This document shows, one piece after another, positions 541 to 38,975 of a DNA stretch of 38,975 nucleotides. Made by a program: the position numbers and the translations under genes. The notes under the pieces were generated by a model. It had not been told where the DNA came from. It was given only the letters and a program-made list of their open reading frames with translations, and did not search any database. Each line of letters starts with the position of its first letter. Position 1 is the first letter of the stretch. Source of the DNA: a virus (Duplodnaviria > Caudoviricetes); the IMG/VR virus record IMGVR_UViG_3300027819_000029, positions 1-38,975 of that record; one strand, written 5' to 3'.

Positions 541-868
541 AAACTGGGGCGGTGCTCGTGGCGGCTCCGGCAGAAAGCCCATCTGCATATCCGACAAGGA
601 AAAGAAGAACCTCATCAAGGCCGCGAAGGAAGCGTCGAAGCGAACCGGGAAAACGGTGTGGGATATCCTGATGATGCACATTTACAACGGGAAGGACCAG
701 CCCCGCGTAAGCGTAGCCGCCATCAAGGTGTTTCAGGATGCCGTCATCGCCAAGCAGTCCCACGAGACGAAGGAGATTTATAACTATTCCCCGGCGATCC
801 TGCCGGTTCTTGAGGATGACCCGTCGAGGATCGATATGGCGAAGGCGGCACAGTCTCCGGTCCATTGA
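530..868 (+). CDS. terS: probable terminase small subunit
   Basis: Basic N-terminus 'WGGARGGSGRKP'; stop overlaps the TerL start (TGATG at 866-870); synteny. Confidence 0.6.
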   Translation: MPSKNWGGARGGSGRKPICISDKEKKNLIKAAKEASKRTGKTVWDILMMHIYNGKDQPRVSVAAIKVFQDAVIAKQSHETKEIYNYSPAILPVLEDDPSRIDMAKAAQSPVH

Positions 869-3324
869 TGTTGGCCGCGTGGAAGCCGCACGACGGCCCC
901 CAGACGGAGTTCCTTCGGCGGGGTGAGTTTGAGATTCTGTTCGGCGGGGCGGCTGGCCCCGGGAAGACCGATTGCTTGGTCATCGCCGCCACGCGGTACG
1001 TCAGCAACCCGAATTACAAGGCCCTGATCCTCCGCCGGACGTTTCCTCAGTTGGAAGAGATCATGGACCGTTGCCGGAAGTATTACCCACTGATCGACCC
1101 GGGCGCGTACTTCCTCGCCACAGAGAAGCGGTGGCATTTCTCGTCGGGCGCTACGATCAAGTTAGGCCATTGCCAGCACGAGGCCGACCGGTTCAACTAT
1201 CAGGGGCAGGATTACCATTTCATCGGATTCGATGAGGCGACACAGTTCACGGCGCTGATTTATCTGTACCTGTTCTCTCGGTGCCGGTCCACGGACCCCC
1301 GGATTCGCCCGATGGTGCGCTCCACGTCGAACCCGGGCGGCGAGGGCCACCAGTTCATCAAGGAGCGGTTCGGCATCGGTAACATTGAGCCTCGCACCAC
1401 GATGTACGAGGAGTCCGTTGACCCGATCACCGGCGAGGCGCTTCGACTGTCGCGGACGTTCATCCCGGCGACGTTGGAAGATAACCCGACGCTGCTGCTG
1501 AACGATCCGGATTATCTGGCGCGACTGGCGGCGCTGCCGACCATCGAGTATCTTCGGCTCCGCGAAGGCCGGTGGGATGCCTTTGAGGGTCAGGCGTTCC
1601 GGGAGTTGAACCGGCAGATTCACTCCATCCCGGCGTTCGACATCCCGCCGGAGTGGACCCGGTACCGGGCCTTCGACTGGGGCTACGCGAAGCCGTTTTC
1701 CGTCGGATGGTACGCCGTGGACTTCGATGGGAGGATCTACCGGTACCGGGCGTGGTACGGGTGCAAGCGGGACGAGCGCGGGAAGTTGCTCCCCGACCAA
1801 GGCATCAAGATGACCGCGACGGACATCGCCCGGGGCATCAAGGACCGGGAGCGCGGGGAGCGGATACAGGTCGGACCCGCCGGCCACGACATCTGGTCGC
1901 GTAGGCCGCAGAAGGACGGGTCTCTTGGCATCTCGGTGTTCGATGAGATGTGCGCGGAGGGCGTGGTCTGGATCAAGGCGGACAATGACCGGATGCTCGG
2001 GCGCCAGCAGTTCCACAAACGACTGGAAGTTGACGAGGATGGAAAGCCCGGCCTGTACATCTTCCAGACGCCGGAAAACGAGGATTCCTTCTGGCGCACG
2101 ATACCGATGTTGCGGGAGTACGAGCGCAACCCGGAGGAGATTGAGGAGAAGTGCGAGGACCATTGTTTCGTCGGAGAAACTGGAATAACGACGGACCTTG
2201 GCGTGAAGCCGATATCCTCCCTTGTCGGTGTAACCGGGAGGCTATGGACAGCCGGGAATCAATGGTCGGAGTTCCACGGTTGCCGGGAGACAAGGAAGTC
2301 TTCCCCGCTTGTTCGGGTTACGTTCGTTGACGGGCACGATGTTTTTTGTACTCCCGACCACCGGTTTCTCACCACAGACGGGAAGTGGACCGAAGCGAAA
2401 AACTTGACAGGCAGGGAGGTACATAGTGCAATATCTCATCTTGTCAATGGAGGTGAGATATGGAAGTCCTCGTCATCAGCCCCACGATTCAGGAGTTCCT
2501 CGGAATCAGGTATTACAAGTGCGGACCTTACTTCCAACGAAAAGGAGTTCGCTTACATCGGACCGTGTGGGAGCAGTCCAACGGGAGGCCGGTTCCTGCC
2601 GGATGGCACGTTCATCACTCCGATAAGGACAGGGCGAATAATCAACCCGGAAATCTTTCGCTCAAAGAGGACGGAGAGCACCTATCCGTTCACGGAAAGG
2701 CCAACGACCACACAAAGGCGATGTTGGCCGCACGGGAAGCGGCAAAAATATGGCACTCCAGCCCCGCAGGTCGAGAGTGGGCGAAACGAAACTTCGAAAA
2801 GAACGTTCGAGGAGAAATACAGCGAAGGGTTGAAAAGAAGTGCGAGCAATGCGGAGCGGATTACCCCGGGTTATTTCAATCAAGGTTCTGCTCTCCCGGA
2901 TGCAAAACAAAGTGGCGATACGCCGCAGGGCTTGATCGGGTCATCAGAGAGTGCATTGTTTGCGGAAAGAAATTCGAGGTCAATAAATATCTCGGGTCCA
3001 AGTCCTGCTCTCGTAAGTGCGCTGGCGTCAGGAGCGGGAACACGCGCCGTGGCCGTCCTCAGGGTAGAAGAGGCGGGGAGGGGTGACGTTTACTGCCTCT
3101 CGGTTGACGATCTTCATTCGTTCGCGCTTTCGAACGGAGTAATCGTACATAACTGCTACGAAGAGGTCCGCTACTTCTTGATGAGCCGCCCAATTAAGCC
3201 GAGGCACCGGGTAAAGCCGGACCTTAACTCGTTCCAAGCGGAGCGGCGGAAGTTGATAAAGGCGCGGGCATACGCTTCGCGCCATGGGGTCAGTCTTACT
3301 GACGCATACGGGAGGATCCGATAA
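868..3324 (+). CDS. terL: terminase large subunit precursor containing an intein (mature ~488 aa)
   Basis: 'PHDGPQTEF', Walker A 'GGAAGPGKT', Walker B 'FIGFDEATQF', motif III 'STSNPGG', nuclease 'AFDWGY'; removing the intein restores 'EDH|CYEEVRY'. ATG 868 preferred over TTG 865. Confidence 0.95.
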   Translation: MLAAWKPHDGPQTEFLRRGEFEILFGGAAGPGKTDCLVIAATRYVSNPNYKALILRRTFPQLEEIMDRCRKYYPLIDPGAYFLATEKRWHFSSGATIKLGHCQHEADRFNYQGQDYHFIGFDEATQFTALIYLYLFSRCRSTDPRIRPMVRSTSNPGGEGHQFIKERFGIGNIEPRTTMYEESVDPITGEALRLSRTFIPATLEDNPTLLLNDPDYLARLAALPTIEYLRLREGRWDAFEGQAFRELNRQIHSIPAFDIPPEWTRYRAFDWGYAKPFSVGWYAVDFDGRIYRYRAWYGCKRDERGKLLPDQGIKMTATDIARGIKDRERGERIQVGPAGHDIWSRRPQKDGSLGISVFDEMCAEGVVWIKADNDRMLGRQQFHKRLEVDEDGKPGLYIFQTPENEDSFWRTIPMLREYERNPEEIEEKCEDHCFVGETGITTDLGVKPISSLVGVTGRLWTAGNQWSEFHGCRETRKSSPLVRVTFVDGHDVFCTPDHRFLTTDGKWTEAKNLTGREVHSAISHLVNGGEIWKSSSSAPRFRSSSESGITSADLTSNEKEFAYIGPCGSSPTGGRFLPDGTFITPIRTGRIINPEIFRSKRTESTYPFTERPTTTQRRCWPHGKRQKYGTPAPQVESGRNETSKRTFEEKYSEGLKRSASNAERITPGYFNQGSALPDAKQSGDTPQGLIGSSESALFAERNSRSINISGPSPALVSALASGAGTRAVAVLRVEEAGRGDVYCLSVDDLHSFALSNGVIVHNCYEEVRYFLMSRPIKPRHRVKPDLNSFQAERRKLIKARAYASRHGVSLTDAYGRIR
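2164..3153 (+). mobile_element. intein (330 aa) in the TerL nuclease domain
   Basis: Starts with Cys 'CFVGETGITT' (block A), has 'VFCTPDHRFLT' (block B) and 'DVYCLSV', ends 'NGVIVHN' followed by a +1 Cys. Confidence 0.93.
2460..3086 (+). CDS. HNH homing endonuclease with C-terminal Cys-rich zinc-binding repeats, nested out of frame inside the intein
   Basis: 'RLHRTVWE...VP.GWHVHHSDKDRANNQPGNL' HNH motif; CxxC/FCSxxC repeats; SD GGAGGTG at 2449-2455 before ATG 2460; different frame from TerL. Confidence 0.85.
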   Translation: MEVLVISPTIQEFLGIRYYKCGPYFQRKGVRLHRTVWEQSNGRPVPAGWHVHHSDKDRANNQPGNLSLKEDGEHLSVHGKANDHTKAMLAAREAAKIWHSSPAGREWAKRNFEKNVRGEIQRRVEKKCEQCGADYPGLFQSRFCSPGCKTKWRYAAGLDRVIRECIVCGKKFEVNKYLGSKSCSRKCAGVRSGNTRRGRPQGRRGGEG

Positions 3325-6570: not shown

Positions 6571-8525
6571 ATGGCAACCATCGGGGCGACCGCCCCCTCA
6601 CAGAACACGATCAACTACGACGCCCTGAACTGATCGGGGCTTTGGAGGTTTGCCTGTACCTGTTCTGGGCTTGTGCAGCCCACAGTGACATGCCCTGCAA
6701 AGGGTGACGCCGTTTGAGACTTCAAAGCGGAGTTCTCGGTTCTTGCTCCAAGGTTCAATGTGATGGGCAGTCAGATCGCGGCCGTTTGATCCGCATTTCT
6801 GGCATCTCCACCGATCACGCCTCAGGACAGCGAGGGACCATTCCTTGTGGCGAGTGCTGCTTCGCATAAGGCGGTTTTCGGAATTAATTCCGCCTTGCCA
6901 GTTCCAGTGATTAGGACCGGAATTGGCTTCGCTTGTTTTTCGTCTCCAATCGGCATCATGAACCGGATGCGATTTCCCCTTGTTATGAGGGACGTGGTTC
7001 TTCGTGAATCCTTGCTGATTCCCGAGACACTTACCCTTCCGGCTTTCGGAGATTTTCTTTTTCGTTTCTTCCGAATGCTTCTTTCCGGCAAAGGGGGCGA
7101 AATCTTTCCTTCCGGTCATCCAGTTCTTTAGTCGGCCCTCTGCATAGGCACGACGGACGGCATCGCCGATTAACTTCCTTGATTCTGGCGAATGCTTTGT
7201 TCCGGGTTTCATCGGCAAGTCTCCTTAGAAAACGGGCTTAATTCGGCGAAAATCTTACGATCCTGCTAACTACTACACTAACAGCGTACCGGCAGGGTGT
7301 CAAGTAGATAACGCCGAGCCAGCAGGAGGGATTACGAAAGGCCCTCCGGGCGCGTGTGACGGTCAGGGGTGAATAAATATAATCCCCATAAATAGCCCGG
7401 CCGAAAGGCGTGACATGACCTGAGCCTCCGGGAAACCGGAGGAAGCGGGAAATAGAAAGCCCGCGATAACAACACTGACTCAGTACCACGCTCGCGAACT
7501 ACCGCGAAACTATGGTCGACAACATCTTCAAATCCAACGGGTTCCTTGCCGCGCTGAAGTCTTACGGCGGCATCGAATACCAGGACGGCGGGGAGCGCAT
7601 CGCGCAACCGCTGATGTACGAGGACAACGGAACCGTCAAGTCGTACAGCGGTTACGATACCCTCGACACCACGCCGCAGGACGGCATGACCACGGCGTTC
7701 TTCCCGTGGTGCGAAGTGGCTGGCACCATCTCCATCTCCCGACTCGAAGAGCGCAAGAATAGCGGCGAGTCCGCGATCCTGAAGCTCCTCGAAAAGAAGA
7801 TCCTTCAGGCCGAGATGTCCCTGAAGGCGGCCATCAATTCCCAACTGGTCCTCGGCACGGTTTCCGGGGCGACCTTCGTTCCCGGCAACTCCGCGAAGGA
7901 TCTGTTCCCCCTGGGGTACTTCCTCCGGAAGCTCAACACTACCGACCCGACCACGGGCGGGAACGTCGGCAACATCGCGGGGGCGACGTACTCCTGGTGG
8001 AGGCACAAGACCGGCACGTTCGCGTCCGCGTCCGCCGACACGGGGAACTCGCTCGCCGTAGCGGTTACAACGTACAAGGGCATGAAGAACGGGTTGCACC
8101 GTCTGTACAACTGGTGCTCCAGGGGTGCCGACGGAACCGGCCCGAATATCATGCTTGCCGATCAGGTCAGCTACGAGACCTACGTCAACGCCATCCAGGA
8201 CCAGCGGCAGTACCAGGACGACAAGCTGGCCCAGATCGGCTTCGACAACATCAAGGTCCGGGCGGCTACGCTCATCTGGGACGAACTGGTCCCGGACATC
8301 TCGAACGGAACCGCCGCCATCACCCTGGGCTCCGTGTTCGCCCTGAACACGAAGTTCTACAAGCTGGTCATCGACTCGCAGACGGATTTCGTGACCACTC
8401 CGTTCATCGAGCCGGAGAACCAGACCGCGAAGACCGCGAAGATCCTCTTCATGGGGAACGCCACCGTTTCCAACATGCGGAAGCTCGGCGTGGCTTACGG
8501 AATCGCTCAGACCATCGCGTCGTAA
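6571..8525 (+). CDS. major capsid protein, spliced: join(6571..6626,7478..8525), 367 aa
   Basis: SD AAGGAGG + ATG 6571 gives MATIGATAPSQNTINYDAL then a stop; joining CT|A restores 'NYDALLSTTLANYRETMVDNIFKSN...'; the 7512 ATG has no SD; the body ('GGERI.QPL.Y', 'GFDNIKV') resembles HK97-fold capsids. Confidence 0.88.
6598..7212 (-). CDS. intron-encoded HNH endonuclease with NUMOD3 repeats (antisense to the intron)
   Basis: NUMOD3 'GKKHSEETKKKISES'; HNH 'VLRRDRWRCQKCG...LTAHHI.PW...NGVTLCRACH'; minus-strand SD AAGGAG (7221-7226) 8 nt from ATG 7212. Confidence 0.88.
   Translation of the reverse strand: MKPGTKHSPESRKLIGDAVRRAYAEGRLKNWMTGRKDFAPFAGKKHSEETKKKISESRKGKCLGNQQGFTKNHVPHNKGKSHPVHDADWRRKTSEANSGPNHWNWQGGINSENRLMRSSTRHKEWSLAVLRRDRWRCQKCGSNGRDLTAHHIEPWSKNRELRFEVSNGVTLCRACHCGLHKPRTGTGKPPKPRSVQGVVVDRVL
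6627..7477 (+). mobile_element. group I intron (851 nt) in the major capsid gene
   Basis: P1 GCCCU/GGGGC with U.G at the 5' splice site; P2 6644-6654/7214-7224; P3 CGGGCU/AGCCCG; P4 UUCGGCG/CGCCGAG; P7 ACGGUCA/UGACCU; P8 GCC-GAAA-GGC; P9 CCUCCGG-GAAA-CCGGAGG; terminal G 7477; splicing restores the frame. Confidence 0.9.
7275..7303 (-). promoter_or_regulatory. sigma70-type antisense promoter for the intron HNH, inside the ribozyme P5 region
   Basis: Minus strand TTGACA (7298-7303), 17 nt, TAGTGT (7275-7280) with extended -10 TG. Confidence 0.65.
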
Positions 8526-8600
8526 TTCAACCGTCAACCCCTCAACAACGCGGCGGGGAGTCGGGGCCTCGTGTCAGCCACAAAAAAGGGAGGTAGTGCA

Positions 8601-9985
8601 ATGTTGCTCCAGAGGATCAATTAGGTCCCTCTCCGTGTCGAGGACGGAGATGCAAACCGGGTGAATTCGGTGAACCCCGACCGGGAAACCGAGGGCAACG
8701 CCGAGCCAAGCCGGGGATACATCCCCGGAAGGTGTAGAGACTACCGGAGGGGTTCAGTCCCCTTAATAACCGGCCAGAGCGCCCGGGCCGAAAGGCATGA
8801 CATAGTCCACTCCCTTGGGTAACCAAGGAATCGAGTGCAATCGTTCAGACCCCGAGAAAATCTTCATCGTCGTGAAGAACACGTACTCAACCGCGTCACT
8901 CACCAACGGGCAGGCGGTGATCTGGGATTAGTCACATAGTCCCCCATCGTTTCTTCGGACCTAATTTAAGGGAGGACAGAACTTCAGGATGATTGGCGGG
9001 ATGATCCCTGCGACGGAGAACTTCCAGGTTCCCGATGGCATTATTCTGTTTGTTGCCGTCGATATGATGGACGATCTCGTAACGCCGCAGTTTCCTGCCA
9101 AGGTGCGTTTCCATGACGTGCCGATGTTCAAGCATACGCTTCCCGTTTACGGTGATTTCCCTGTAGCCCTGAGTGGAAATTCCCCCTTCTCCGTTGGCAC
9201 GTTTTTTACGGAAGAGGGGATCGCCGTAGCGGACCAGTCGCAGGTAGTGGGTATTGCACATCCCACGACCAGTGACTGGATTCTCGCAATCTTTAATGAC
9301 GCAGAGATTGGGAGAATCATGCTTGACAAATCGTCCTGTAGAATCCTTTTCCATTCGGTCCATGATTTATCCTCCTTGCTTGATAGTATGCCACAGACGA
9401 CAACGGAAGGCAAGAGGAACGATGGTGCAAACGGGGTGAACTCAGGGAAACCCGAACGGATAATGCCGAGGGCAATCCTGAGCCAAGCCGGGGATACATC
9501 CCCGGAAGGTGCAGAGACTACCGGAGGGGTTCAGTCCCCTTAATAACCGGCCAGAGCGCCCCGCTCGAAAGAGATGATATAGTCCGAGCCACCAGTAATG
9601 GTGGAACAACTTGTATGCCACGGACGCCGATGGCGTGGGAGTCACCAAGCCCACGGACACGGCAGCCGTGAAAGCCCTTCACAACGGGACCGCGTTCGCC
9701 GGTATCGCCGCGCAGACCATCGCGTCGGGCGCCTACGGGCTCATCCAGGTGTACGGGTACCACAGCGCGGTCCGCGTTCGCTCATGGACCGCCGGTGTCC
9801 CCGGCATCGCGGCGGGCACGGCTCTCGTTTGCGTGAGCGCCGTGTTCTGCCTGGAGAGCTACATCAACTACGCGCTGGCGACGAGTTCGCTGACGCAGGT
9901 CAACGTGAGGCACGCCGGGTTCGCGCTCGCGGCGCAGGCGTCCTGGACTACTAAGGCGATCGCGGTTTTTATAAAGGCTTTATAG
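8601..9985 (+). CDS. capsid decoration/cement-like protein, spliced: join(8601..8617,8838..8928,9614..9985), 159 aa
   Basis: SD GGGAGG + ATG 8601; joins AT|C and GAT|TAT give MLLQRINRSDPEKIFIVVKNTYSTASLTNGQAVIWDYATDADGVGVTKP...'AGIAAQTIASGAYGLIQVYG'; follows the capsid gene. Confidence 0.8.
8618..8837 (+). mobile_element. ORF-less mini group I intron (220 nt)
   Basis: P1 GGAU/GUCC; P2 UCUCCGU/ACGGAGA; P3 CCGGGUG/CGCCCGG; P4 UUCGGUG/CGCCGAG; P7 GAGACUA/UAGUCC; P8 GCC-GAAA-GGC; P9 CCUUGG-GUAA-CCAAGG; ends ...GAGUG at 8837. Confidence 0.9.
8703..8784 (+). repeat. 82-nt direct repeat of 9480..9561 (shared intron core)
   Basis: GAGCCAAGCCGGGGATACATCCCCGGAAGGTG(T/C)AGAGACTACC...CCAGAGCGCCC, one mismatch. 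Confidence 0.95.
8932..9363 (-). CDS. intron-encoded HNH endonuclease (antisense)
   Basis: N-terminal 'C...C...GMCNTHY' zinc motif; 'EHRHVME..LGRKL...EIVHHIDGNKQNN.IGNL'; minus-strand SD AAGGAGG at 9371-9377. Confidence 0.88.
   Translation of the reverse strand: MDRMEKDSTGRFVKHDSPNLCVIKDCENPVTGRGMCNTHYLRLVRYGDPLFRKKRANGEGGISTQGYREITVNGKRMLEHRHVMETHLGRKLRRYEIVHHIDGNKQNNAIGNLEVLRRRDHPANHPEVLSSLKLGPKKRWGTM
9385..9413 (-). promoter_or_regulatory. antisense promoter for the intron HNH
   Basis: Minus strand TTGCCT (9408-9413), 17 nt, CATACT (9385-9390) with extended -10 TG. Confidence 0.5.
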
Positions 9986-9987
9986 GC

Positions 9988-10050
9988 TTGACTTTATAAA
10001 AGCACCGCTGTATCCTGGGTGTGGATTCTAAATAATCCACACCCAGGAGG
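9988..10050 (+). promoter_or_regulatory. promoter plus RBS-sequestering hairpin for the free-standing HNH
   Basis: TTGACT (9988-9993), 17 nt, TATCCT (10011-10016); perfect 15-bp inverted repeat 10013-10027/10034-10048 overlapping SD AGGAGG (10045-10050). Confidence 0.7.
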
Positions 10051-10057
10051 TTTTTAA

Positions 10058-10648
10058 ATGACGAAGAGCGAAGAAGAAAAACGAAAGCACGCAGAATGGC
10101 ACCGGGAGTGGAGGAAAAAAAATCCAGAAAAAGCCCACGGATCTCCGGAATGGAGAAAACTTCATCCGGAAAAGGCAAGGGAAATTGATAGACGTAAGCG
10201 TGAGTTATATCGAGAAAAACGGTTAGAATACGCAAGGAAATACAACAAACCGTATTACGAAAAGAACAGGTCCGTAATTAGAGAAAAACAAAGCGATTAT
10301 TATAAAGAAAACGCGGAGGTAATAAAGGGTAAGGTTAGCGAGTATTATAAGAGAAACGAAATAAATATAAAAGAAAAGCGAAAAACATCCAGGATGGAAT
10401 TAATGGCATGGATGCAGGGAATTAAACAGCAATTAAATTGCTGTAAATGTCCAGAAAATCACCCATCCTGTTTAGAGTTCCATCACTTAGATCCAGAGAC
10501 AAAAGAGTATGCTGTTGGTAGGATGTTTAGCCTTAGCCTATCGTCAGAAAAATTGAAACAAATGATCTTGGAAGAGATGGGTAAATGTATAGTGCTTTGT
10601 TCAAATTGTCATAAAAAAGAACACCACAAAACAATCGGTTGTCCTTAG
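10058..10648 (+). CDS. free-standing HNH endonuclease
   Basis: AT-rich; long K/E/R/Y helical N-terminus; 'CCKCPENHPSCLEFHHLDP...KCIVLCSNCHKKEH'. Confidence 0.85.
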   Translation: MTKSEEEKRKHAEWHREWRKKNPEKAHGSPEWRKLHPEKAREIDRRKRELYREKRLEYARKYNKPYYEKNRSVIREKQSDYYKENAEVIKGKVSEYYKRNEINIKEKRKTSRMELMAWMQGIKQQLNCCKCPENHPSCLEFHHLDPETKEYAVGRMFSLSLSSEKLKQMILEEMGKCIVLCSNCHKKEHHKTIGCP

Positions 10649-10743: not shown

Positions 10744-10989
10744 ATGACTGCAAAGTATGGGAAGGACGAGCCGTTTTCTGATCCGGTGGTGATTTGCGAT
10801 TCGTGCAACGCGCTTCTGCTTGTCGTGGAGTTGAATGAACTCGGTATGTGCGAGAAGTGCGGCAATACTCGGGTACGCAACCTTCGGATCGTAACGGAAG
10901 AAAACCTGAAAACGCTCGAAGCGTGGAGAGACGAGGGGAAGATCGACCAAGAGTTCCTGGACATCTTCGGCCCGGTGCAAAAATCATGA
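10744..10989 (+). CDS. small zinc-ribbon protein
   Basis: CDSC...CEKCG; SD GGGAGG. Confidence 0.65.
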   Translation: MTAKYGKDEPFSDPVVICDSCNALLLVVELNELGMCEKCGNTRVRNLRIVTEENLKTLEAWRDEGKIDQEFLDIFGPVQKS

Positions 10990-12404
10990 GCCGCGTCCTC
11001 ATCGGTATTCCGTGCTACCGGGACGTATCGTCGGAAACCCTCGAAGATTACATGCGCCTCGCCTACTACTGTGGCCGGCGGATGCCGGAACACGAGTTTC
11101 TTCTGGCGATCAAGCCGAAGTCCGAGCAGTTCAGGGCGCGTAACGCCATCGTTGAGGCCGCGCTTCAGACGGCGTGCGATTACCTGTTCTTCCTCGACGA
11201 CGATCATGTCATCGACTGGGAGAATACCCGGGGGCCTACTCAGCGGTACGGGATGTTGCAGACGCTGATATCCCATATGGAGGCCGACCCGAAGCGGGGC
11301 ATCGTGGGTGCCCTGTACTATCATCGCGGTGGGGACTGCCGCCCGGTTCTGATGAAATACGGTCAGGACGGAGGCACCTACTGGATCCGCGAGGATCAGA
11401 TTACCGGCGAGATGCAGGAAGTGGCCGTACAGGGCGGCGGTTGCATGTTGCTGCGGATGTCGATGTTCGACAAGATCAAGTCTCCGTGGTTCGAGCCGGA
11501 ATTTGATCTTGGAACGGATTTACAGATATGCAAGAAGGCCGTCGGTGCGGGGTTCACGGTCTGGTGTGATACGTCGATCAAGGTCGGGCACGTGCTCAAC
11601 AAGCGCGAGATCATCACGCCGAACAACCGGCATCGGTATTCGATGGAGAACGCCGCGACTCTTTCCCAGTCGGGTGAGGGAGTGGAGACGGGGTGGGCGG
11701 TGAGTTCCGCCCTCCAACTCTACCGGATGGACGCGGAAGAGCATATGGGGATGACGATCAACGATATGGCGAAGATCGCCGAGAGGTACAACCCGGCAGA
11801 CATCGCCGCCGCTGGCGACGACCTGAAGAGTTACTACGGCTCCAGAGGCAAGGAGCAGTTGGCGAGGCAGGTTATTTTCCATCATAGCCCGGCCATGATT
11901 CAGCAGATGGAAATGATCCTCGGGATGATAAATAAAAACGCGGAAGGATACGCGCTGGATTTCGGATGCGGGTCCGCTCCGGTGAGCATGGAACTCGTCA
12001 TGCGCGGGCAGCGCGTTGACTTCATCGACGTGGACGGAGCCGGGGCTTACGAGTTCACGAAGTGGCGTGCGAAGAAGCGCGGCGTATCCGACCGGTGCGG
12101 GTGGACTTGGGGCGGGCCGTATGACTACGCCCTGATGCTTGATTCCATCGAGCACCTCCCCGATTGGAGGGAAGACGTAGGCAAGGTTTGCGATCTGCTG
12201 AAAGATGGCGGGGCGCTCATCACGAATTACTTCCTTAACCGGGATTTCGATAACCCGGAGCATATTTCCATGGATCATAAGGCCGTACAGGAGTTTCTTA
12301 TAAGCAAAGGCGTGTATCCGATCAACCTTATCCTCTGGACGAAATCGGACCTTGGGTTCATGGACAAGAAGGTCATGGACGGCGGCGTATGCGCTCCGTC
12401 CTGA
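10986..12404 (+). CDS. GT-A (family 2-like) glycosyltransferase fused to a class I SAM-dependent methyltransferase
   Basis: 'VLIGIPCY...ARNAIVE..L...DYLFFLDDD...GGGCMLL...DLQIC..A...G..VWCD' then 'ALDFGCGSA...DSIEHL'; ATG 10986 coupled to the upstream stop. Confidence 0.85.
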   Translation: MSRVLIGIPCYRDVSSETLEDYMRLAYYCGRRMPEHEFLLAIKPKSEQFRARNAIVEAALQTACDYLFFLDDDHVIDWENTRGPTQRYGMLQTLISHMEADPKRGIVGALYYHRGGDCRPVLMKYGQDGGTYWIREDQITGEMQEVAVQGGGCMLLRMSMFDKIKSPWFEPEFDLGTDLQICKKAVGAGFTVWCDTSIKVGHVLNKREIITPNNRHRYSMENAATLSQSGEGVETGWAVSSALQLYRMDAEEHMGMTINDMAKIAERYNPADIAAAGDDLKSYYGSRGKEQLARQVIFHHSPAMIQQMEMILGMINKNAEGYALDFGCGSAPVSMELVMRGQRVDFIDVDGAGAYEFTKWRAKKRGVSDRCGWTWGGPYDYALMLDSIEHLPDWREDVGKVCDLLKDGGALITNYFLNRDFDNPEHISMDHKAVQEFLISKGVYPINLILWTKSDLGFMDKKVMDGGVCAPS

Positions 12405-31308: not shown

Positions 31309-31356
31309 GCCCCCTGCTACAGTTCCTCACCGGGGCGCCGGGGTAGGCGGCTCCCT

Positions 31357-31393
31357 CACTTCCATCTTCACCACCTCCCCCGCGCGGAGGAAG
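31357..31393. repeat. 37-nt direct repeat of 32043..32079 flanking the Mom-like gene
   Basis: CACTTCCATCTTCACCACCT(C/T)CCCCGCG(C/T)GGAGGAAG, 35/37 identical. Confidence 0.85.
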
Positions 31394-31405: not shown

Positions 31406-32023
31406 CTATAACAACAACGGTTGTGCCGTAATTTCCTTACTTGCATCATATCGTTCCGTGTTACCCTTTGGATATGTTTGGGTTGGATAGTTCAATGAAG
31501 ACAACATATCCTTTATTTCTCTATGGCTACCAATGAAATATACGTATCGGTGCTTTGATGTCCTTGGTTGCCTAATTGATTTGTCTCCGCCGTGATGCCT
31601 TGCGTGTTTTCCTTCACCGGAATAAATGTCCGTCCTTTCCTTCGTGCACCCGGTATAAAGCCAATTGGTTGCTTGGTATATGTACCCGATGTGCCCTTTC
31701 CCTACATCTGCATAACTAACTATAATCCTTGGTCTATCCAACTGCTTCAGGCTGGATGACACCAATACGCTCGCCCTGTTATTCCCTCCGTCTTCTATGC
31801 AAACCCTGTTTAATTCAAGAACTATTTTGGCATATTTTTTACCGCATATCCCGGAGCAAAGATATGGGGATGCGGGCACTCCGTAGGTGGCTATGCCCAC
31901 CAACATATTTCCTTCGTACAATCCAAACGCATCTGTAATGCATGGCAATCTCTTGGCGTAATGTCTTTCCAATATCCAAGGATAAGTCACCTCTGAGGAT
32001 ACTCTGTAAACATTGGATTTCAT
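31406..32023 (-). CDS. Mom-like (GNAT-fold) DNA adenine modification protein
   Basis: 'I...HY...FGL...G...YG.P...ELNR...IVSYAD...H.G.IYQATNWLYTG...KHRY' signature; low GC. Confidence 0.7.
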   Translation of the reverse strand: MKSNVYRVSSEVTYPWILERHYAKRLPCITDAFGLYEGNMLVGIATYGVPASPYLCSGICGKKYAKIVLELNRVCIEDGGNNRASVLVSSSLKQLDRPRIIVSYADVGKGHIGYIYQATNWLYTGCTKERTDIYSGEGKHARHHGGDKSIRQPRTSKHRYVYFIGSHREIKDMLSSLNYPTQTYPKGNTERYDASKEITAQPLLL

Positions 32024-32178
32024 ACCTTCACTTCCCCTCCCCCACTTCCATCTTCACCACCTTCCCCGCGTGGAGGAAGCAGGCATGCATTTCCCCTCCT
32101 TCGCCCTACGGCGGACAAGCGGTACAATAAATATCGCAAACATCCCGAGAGTGGCCCATGCTTTCAACCAGAAGTCGT

Positions 32179-38507: not shown

Positions 38508-38975
38508 TTGACTCCACAATTCCGAATAAAGAATTGGAAGAAACATCAGCACTATAAAGGCCGCCGCCCCCCTTGGATAAAACTTCACGCCGCCCTTCTG
38601 GACGACTACGAATTTGAGTGCTTGCAGGATGATAGCAAGATGCACCTTATCGCTATCTGGTTACTTGCAAGCCGGTCCCGAGACTGCCACCCTGACGGAG
38701 ATCCCCTCCTACCTGAAGATGAACCGTACCTCACAAAAAAGGCGGGACTAAAAAAGAAGGTGTCTCTAACCCCCTTATTCTCAAGCGGTTTCCTTGTACG
38801 CTATCAACTTGATAGCAACTTGATAGCAGAGCGCAAGCAACTTGTACCTACAGAGACAGAGACAGAGACAGAGACAGAGACATATAAAGAAGAGACATAT
38901 AAAGAAGAGACATATAAAGAAGAGGTAGATACAGAAGGATCATTGTCGGCTACCGCCGACCTCCCCTACCTTTGG
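38508..38975 (+). CDS. phage replication initiator, 5' part (runs off the window)
   Basis: SD GGAGG (38498-38502) + TTG; 'FRIKNWKKHQHYK.RRPPWIKLH..LLDD.EF..L...K..LI.IWLLAS'; open to the window end, with a 'TETETE' linker. Confidence 0.75.
   Translation, partial: MTPQFRIKNWKKHQHYKGRRPPWIKLHAALLDDYEFECLQDDSKMHLIAIWLLASRSRDCHPDGDPLLPEDEPYLTKKAGLKKKVSLTPLFSSGFLVRYQLDSNLIAERKQLVPTETETETETETYKEETYKEETYKEEVDTEGSLSATADLPYLW
38800..38924 (+). repeat. iteron-like repeats within the initiator gene (putative origin)
   Basis: Palindrome GCTATCAA-C-TTGATAGC, tandem CAACTTGATAG x2, (ACAGAG)x5, (GAGACATATAAAGAA)x3. Confidence 0.7.

Follow-up and report, generated by a model that had tools for sequence, protein, structure and literature searches.

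The window analysed here is the full length of a linear virus record of 38,975 nt, 47% complete. It contains a predicted capsid cement gene of a groundwater phage, which consists of three exons and two related inserts of 220 nt (8618–8837) and 685 nt (8929–9613). The following features are found at this locus.

6627–7477, + strand: 851-nt group I-like intron of the major capsid gene, the third intron; skipped in a contig of sequencing run X6
8588–8595, + strand: Shine-Dalgarno-like GGGAGGT before the cement start codon, seen in the sequence
8601–8617, + strand: exon 1, 17 nt, 3' end GGAU
8618–8837, + strand: intron 1, group I, P7.1/P7.1a type, without ORF; from Rfam, helices and intron-less DNA contigs
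8703–8784, + strand: first copy of the core block, from the P4 end through P6, the P7 5' strand and P7.1 into the P3 3' strand
8838–8928, + strand: exon 2, 91 nt, 3' end GGGAU; corresponds to residues 7–36 of the uninterrupted homologue P0002
8929–9613, + strand: intron 2, group I, whose P2 loop holds a nuclease gene; from Rfam, helices, contigs and relatives
8932–9363, − strand: antisense gene for an HNH endonuclease of 143 aa with the HH-DG-N-N motif intact (Pfam HNH_3, E 6.3e-10)
9371–9413, − strand: candidate HNH promoter TTGCCT-17-CATACT with extended TG, and Shine-Dalgarno sequence AAGGAGG
9480–9561, + strand: second copy of the core block
9614–9985, + strand: exon 3, 372 nt including the stop codon; 96% identical to P0002

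A 159-codon open frame is obtained only when both inserts are taken out. The unspliced frame, and the frame after removal of intron 2 only, stop after 7 codons, and removal of intron 1 only leads to a stop after 36. Joining exon 1 to exon 3 shifts the frame and leads to a stop after 24 codons. The exon and insert lengths, the 159-aa frame, the need for both excisions and the frameshift upon exon-2 skipping, all given in a preliminary description of this DNA, are exact. The joined product is identical to P0002 at 154 of 159 residues, and at 36 of 36 in residues 1–36, which run across both junctions. A search with exon 3 found 591 relatives, 120 of which were listed; 116 of the 120 listed are 157–160 aa long. 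The first 40 columns are gap-free in 109 of the 116 full-length homologues among the matches listed, so the homologues align across the joined exons. P0004 (144 aa) and P0008 (146 aa) could be alleles interrupted at site 1 or proteins with mis-called starts. Gene callers report merely a 124-aa fragment (P0001) and a shortened capsid gene, and the joined frames correct this annotation for a widespread phage family.

The cement protein received no name from Pfam or PHROGs. The structure model of P0002 draws on 116 homologues among the matches listed and has a pLDDT of 80.9. It resembles a capsid chain of HFTV1 (Z 12.5, rmsd 2.1, 113 aligned) and other capsid-associated chains of Pam3 (Z 10.1), Sf11 (Z 9.8) and TW1 (Z 8.7), and the top Foldseek ranks are phi29 gp8.5 (E 1.9e-4) and Pam3. 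This is the all-beta decoration fold shared with capsid cement proteins of the lambda gpD, TW1, Pam3 and phi29 gp8.5 type, although a fold is not proof of function. The gene lies directly behind the major head protein gene, which ends at 8525 (phrog_9953, E 8e-37), and this synteny is kept in relatives. Based on the fold matches and on the position behind the major capsid gene, the prediction of a capsid cement or decoration protein, as the preliminary description had it, is well supported.

The head module of the window comprises a terminase with an intein, a portal and the major head protein. The intein-bearing large terminase subunit is at 865–3324 (Pfam Intein_splicing, E 1.2e-10). A glycosyltransferase-methyltransferase fusion gene lies within the module at 10848–12404. 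Elsewhere in the window there are a Mom-like DNA modification gene (31406–32023), and a 43-nt repeat at 31351–31393 and 32037–32079 (93% copies; 32976 and 33985 hold weaker ones). Close to the right end, a 15-nt unit is repeated in tandem (38876–38935).

Anatomy of the two introns

The Rfam model RF00028 matches intron 2 with 54.3 bits, above the cut-off of 50, and intron 1 with 44.7 bits, below that cut-off (E 2.4e-8). The helices can be placed as follows.

Intron 1: P1 8614–8618/8624–8628, with an in-frame UAG in L1; P2 8631–8649
Intron 1: P3 8657–8663/8780–8786; P4 8666–8671/8700–8705
Intron 1: P7 8739–8743/8803–8807; P8 8787–8796; P9 8813–8828
Intron 1: P9.0 8809–8812/8833–8836; terminal G 8837
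Intron 2: P1 8924–8930/8937–8943; P10 8935–8938/9614–9617; P2 8944–8953/9416–9425
Intron 2: P3 9432–9438/9557–9563; P7 9516–9520/9580–9584
Intron 2: P9.0 9586–9588/9610–9612; terminal G 9613

Both introns have P2, P3, P4, P6, P7 (GACUA/UAGUC), nested P7.1/P7.1a, P8 and P9. The 5' splice sites are marked by U.G pairs in P1, U8617.G8625 in intron 1 and U8928.G8939 in intron 2, and each P1 loop holds an in-frame stop codon. Intron 1 ends at G8837 with a 4-bp P9.0; intron 2 ends at G9613 with a 3-bp P9.0 and a 4-bp P10. Both 5' exons end in GGAU. The guides, reported earlier as GUCC, begin in fact with GUCCC in both introns. The compensatory differences between the two introns in P3, P4 and P8, noticed before, are real when the helices are checked.

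When eight family cores are aligned, pairing is kept in 99.5% of 384 cells, and both sides have changed in 24 of 49 pairs. None of 500 shuffles scores as high, and slid controls pair at 34–48%; a high score is favoured by the relatedness of the rows and by a structure that was derived from intron 1. All five pairs of P7 are invariant, and six of the seven pairs of P6a covary. Covariation is also seen in the extra nested helices P7.1 and P7.1a, between P7 and the P3 3' strand. Extra helices at this place are a mark of subgroup IA, to which the introns may belong; the nesting is reminiscent of IA1 rather than of IA2 with its side-by-side P7.1/P7.2. In the local fold of 8601–8960, the native U.G pairs have probabilities of 0.74 (intron 1) and 0.995 (intron 2), and the cross pairs 0.0. 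The Rfam matches, the helices and the covariation agree with the earlier reading of two group I introns, which are likely to be self-splicing.

The extra length of intron 2 is the HNH gene in its P2 loop, which the preliminary description overlooked. The ORF is enclosed by the 10-bp P2, and the HNH motif is at residue 99. The gene ends in a stop codon 4 nt into the intron, counted from the 5' splice site, and thus overlaps the guide sequence on the opposite strand. HNH orthologues are intact in three related loci (L021, L179 and L194) and reduced to a truncated remnant in a fourth (L225), as expected from the gain-and-decay cycle through which homing nucleases pass. The candidate promoter is below the threshold of the consensus scan, and similar -10 boxes are present in all six of the other family introns. 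Intron 2 is most likely mobilised by this HNH protein, and intron 1 could be taken along with it. A free-standing HNH gene follows the cement gene directly (9988–10648), with a sigma70-like promoter at 9988–10016 and a 15-bp hairpin at 10013–10048. It is a second candidate for a helper nuclease of intron 1.

Alleles, site occupancy and the repeated core block

Intron-less joints are found in public DNA sequencing runs. Contigs joining 8617 to 8838, lacking exactly 220 nt, occur in X3, X6 and X5, and contigs joining 8928 to 9614, lacking exactly 685 nt, occur in X3 and X6. The shorter side of these joints is just 26–28 nt, under the caution level of 30–31 nt, and the sites are exactly as predicted. 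Close relatives, and not the window's own population, may be their source. In X3, depth is 62–77 for intron 1 and 47 for its skip, and 78–95 for intron 2 and 31 for its skip. These values hint at alleles with intron 2 only, bearing in mind that depth does not measure the fraction of genomes, that exon 2 is a separate node and that the alleles are unphased. In the four runs labelled RNA-seq (X9, X13, X16 and X20; contigs, which may be DNA), no spliced joint identical to the window was seen, which speaks neither for nor against splicing; all they contain is unspliced fragments or an intron-less relative that has diverged. X1, X2 and locus L146, which is 100% identical to the window over 8369 nt, possibly represent the source sample and are left out as independent evidence.

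The cement loci fetched number 105 (21 viral, 79 metagenome and 5 genome loci, with duplicates among them). The five genome matches fall in bins of five unrelated taxa, and a host assignment was dropped. Site 2 is filled in nine other loci among the 105. Eight of them (L021, L179, L197, L190, L194, L202, L206 and L225; L179 and L197 are near-identical) have an intron of the same family, and the insert of L204 has a different core. L214, with only a 30-nt intron-like 3' end just before exon 3, is left out of this count. L204, together with the 30 nt of L214, suggests independent invasions of site 2. Site 1 is empty in all 84 loci aligning from residue 1 among the first 100, and also in L225–L229; it is filled in the window and L146 only. 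Empty, site-2-only and two-intron loci are thus all present, which provides the comparison of relatives with zero, one and two introns proposed earlier. A pattern for the site-1 junction has eight viral matches, none with an intron core behind it, and two intron-1-specific patterns have no viral match. None of the 125 family cores collected lie two to a locus, in a viral scan covering 29 of 64 parts and with many loci short.

Among the 88 U positions of the spliced coding sequence, GGAT occurs twice, at the two intron sites. Calculated post hoc, the chance of this coincidence is 1/87, 3/87 with wobble, or about 1/21 when the count is limited to the first 108 nt. The GUCCUCC guide of L179, L194 and L225 can form 6 bp with the exon-1 end of the window. 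In L194 and L225, the guides form five contiguous pairs (one wobble) with their own empty site 1, and five pairs, two of them wobbles, with their own exon. In a tree of 79 cores, intron 1 is placed among the site-2 introns (93/97), plus an intron of the same family from another, apparently capsid, gene (L034). Because the family is also present in that gene, intron 1 need not derive from site 2. The L034 intron (1600–2700) is near the 5' end of the gene in another phage and has a sense-strand nuclease-like ORF.

The occupancy of the two sites, the restriction of GGAT to them, the guide pairing and the tree together suggest that site 2 is likely the older site, and that intron 1 is most likely an ectopic, nuclease-less member of the site-2 intron family. 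The earlier proposal of a spread to a second GGAU site is supported for the family and the sites. A direct copying of the resident intron 2 is not supported: the flanks of the two introns are 63% identical, and trees of flanks only place the donor of intron 1 without support.

The two copies of the core block (8703–8784 and 9480–9561) are identical at 81 of 82 positions on recounting, with the lone mismatch at 8735. The best match of the first copy among other family members is 73/82. Outside the block, introns 1 and 2 are no closer to each other than to other family members, and their P9 regions are alike at 12 of 29 positions. A block identity of 0.99 thus stands at a flank identity of 0.63, where 27 other pairs have block identities of 0.74–0.90. 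The binomial P for this excess is 6e-7 when the median ratio is used and rises to 3e-3 with the most conservative one. The simplest reading is recent gene conversion, which is likely and in line with the core homogenisation suggested earlier. The literature searched, which excludes most subscription journals, held nothing on point about gene conversion between neighbouring phage introns.

Origin of intron 1 and comparison with other phages

The reading we favour, with a probability of about 0.8, is that the cement gene carries two group I introns of one family, which likely self-splice in turn; intron 2, with its nuclease gene, would have been there first, and intron 1, which has none, would have come later to the only other GGAU site. 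Each intron would fold locally on the late mRNA, where the stop codons in the P1 loops would release ribosomes before the guide, and each would splice with its own U.G pair, P9.0 or P9.0/P10, and terminal G. In mixed infections, the antisense HNH gene would be expressed from a promoter of its own, its product would nick or cut alleles without the intron close to site 2, and intron 2 would be copied in. A family member would have reached site 1 through pairing of its guide with GGAU, most likely by reverse splicing. In T4, flanking DNA is co-converted during homing, as described in the available part of PMC2988022, and therefore the nuclease-less intron 1, 91 nt away from site 2, could ride along and would likely spread as a passenger by co-conversion. 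The nested pattern of alleles, which are unphased, fits such spread. Recombination between the adjacent cores would recently have homogenised P6–P7.1, and crossovers deleting exon 2 would be purged as P3-mismatched chimeras with a frameshift.

It can be speculated, as a tentative and rather doubtful extension, that this phage population documents, while it is still going on, the jump of a group I intron by RNA-guided reverse splicing, 91 nt upstream in its own host gene. The newcomer would hitchhike on the antisense HNH of its sister, and the sisters would exchange their core yet keep P3 and P9.0 distinct, preventing cross-splicing and collapse. The portion of a 2014 review that is available (PMC3984707) states that transposition by reverse splicing is without direct experimental evidence. 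The literature searched, with most subscription journals outside it, held nothing on point about ectopic reverse splicing within one phage gene. If the extension is true, alleles from the same waters that have no, one or two introns would allow the ectopic spread of group I introns to be tested directly. What this locus adds is a series in which empty, site-2-only and two-intron alleles can be compared, with one guide target in common and a core that was likely converted; the series would make both ectopic spread and passenger homing testable within one short gene.

Intron 1 could instead have arisen at the DNA level, if the HNH protein cut a look-alike sequence near codon 6 and illegitimate repair copied the ribozyme core, with guide pairing deciding survival only. 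An intact HNH gene adjoins, relaxed nuclease specificity has been proposed as a path to ectopic sites (in the available part of PMC3984707), and insertion must be precise on either route. We consider this route unlikely, since sites 1 and 2 are alike in little except GGAT, intron 1 has no nuclease remnant, and a DNA route alone would not put the insertion exactly behind the U of GGAU. More improbable still is that intron 1 is a direct duplicate of intron 2, made by one transposition in this lineage, with flanks that diverged fast and a block kept by constraint and not by conversion. The GUCCC guide of both introns would suit such an origin, as would the whole-core tree, which pairs them as sisters (93/69), and the four states that only these two introns have in common outside the block, among them J2/3 and the last bases; intron 1 shares three such states with L225. 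The sister status is lost, however, once the block is removed. In other members the block varies freely with compensation (61–74 of 82), as in P6a, so constraint alone does not yield 81/82 at 63% flank identity. Misassembly as the source of the repeat or of the inserts is hardly credible and largely refuted, and so is the reading of the gene as a dead pseudogene. The runs are all short-read contigs, none of which spans the whole region, and L146 is perhaps from the same sample; against this, in X2 the repeat is one unitig with about doubled depth (31, with flanking unitigs at 16–19), the unitigs of X2 and X3 end at identical repeat boundaries, and the 82-nt repeat is found in assemblies of other studies. 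Strains in X3 and X6, from other studies, have SNPs in the capsid gene and carry these same introns, the exons are intact, and the helices covary.

The orf142 introns of Staphylococcus phage Twort were reportedly described by Landthaler and Shub in 1999. According to the available parts of PMC11878797 and PMC3073962 (record AF132670), orf142 is a tail tube gene with three group I introns, a published and experimentally tested precedent for the twin arrangement that was overlooked before. Both genes are late virion genes with several similar group I introns and short exons. In our reading of Twort (L238), GUGCC guides follow two exons with the same AGCAT end, and a block of 70 nt is identical between introns 2 and 3. 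The Twort block spans P7'–P9 and the 3' splice site up to the terminal G, an extent that may promote the skipping observed in that phage, whereas the block of the window is internal and the 3' ends are orthogonal. Unlike Twort, the window has an HNH gene in one intron, and intron-less and one-intron alleles are available.

Twort bears on another explanation, in which the two introns act as a programmed switch: interchangeable guides would leave out exon 2 at a fixed rate and thereby adjust how much cement protein is made. Exon skipping is known for Twort orf142 and the SIOphi polymerase (>47% of transcripts), as far as the available part of PMC11878797 describes it, and either guide can form 4–5 bp with either exon end. 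The guides are thus similar, as noticed earlier, but their interchange is weakened in several ways. Guide 2 favours its own exon end (-7.2 kcal/mol versus -3.5 with the exon-1 end), and its pairing with exon 1 has a probability of 0.0 in the local fold. Cross P9.0 pairs between the introns fail, and chimeric P3 helices are mismatched (-8.8 and -10.7 versus the native -15.0 and -14.5 kcal/mol), a loss of 4–6 kcal/mol. Given the orthogonal 3' ends, exon skipping is predicted to be rare, and deletion of exon 2 is predicted to be disfavoured though possible. The skipped product would be the 24-codon frameshift. An exon-1/exon-3 joint was not seen in contigs of eight runs, mostly DNA, though absence is not demonstrable from contigs. 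We regard a programmed switch as very improbable.

In mycobacteriophage LittleE, splicing of a capsid-gene intron has been demonstrated by RT-PCR and N-terminal sequencing (available part of PMC3706429). LittleE and the window both have a group I-type intron in a capsid gene and an HNH gene transcribed leftwards. The LittleE intron is single and in the major capsid gene, so far as that source goes, which differs from the cement gene of the window; the third intron (6627–7477) is the closer counterpart. The arrangement as such is already known from Twort orf142 and LittleE.

The closest annotated sequence to intron 1 by coverage is the psbA intron of Synechococcus phage S-PM2 (71.9% over 50%, E 3e-6). 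Like intron 1, it has no ORF, and it depends on a neighbouring nuclease (collaborative homing; available part of PMC3984707), a dependence that is proposed for intron 1. The nuclease of S-PM2 is described there as free-standing with the intron's own site as its target, while the candidate helper in the window is in a sister intron 91 nt away. CrAss-like phages have major capsid genes in several fragments through group I introns (PMC7886860, as far as available). They share intron-rich capsid genes and a terminase intein with the window; they are another phage group, and in that source their introns are recognised by encoded protein domains.

The preliminary description counted the two introns of the cement gene and overlooked the third, in the major capsid gene (6571–8525). 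The true start of that gene is 6571, not 7512, and the joined product has 367 aa. The third intron has a different P7 (GGUCA/UGACC-like) and is undetected by Rfam. It carries an antisense NUMOD3-HNH ORF (7218 to 6598) with a candidate promoter TTGACA-17-TAGTGT in the P5 region. In L225, a nuclease-less intron is at the same site. The major capsid genes of relatives are interrupted at two more sites, after about residue 68 in L020, L209 and L171, and at residues 86–93 in L148. These further inserts are about 0.6–1.6 kb long, and that of L171 has a group I core. With these interruptions at further sites, the head genes of this phage family are intron hotspots, and virion genes join nucleotide-metabolism genes in this respect. 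Outside the head genes, a cyanophage psbA in L025 is apparently split by at least two nuclease-carrying introns, one of the same P7.1 type.
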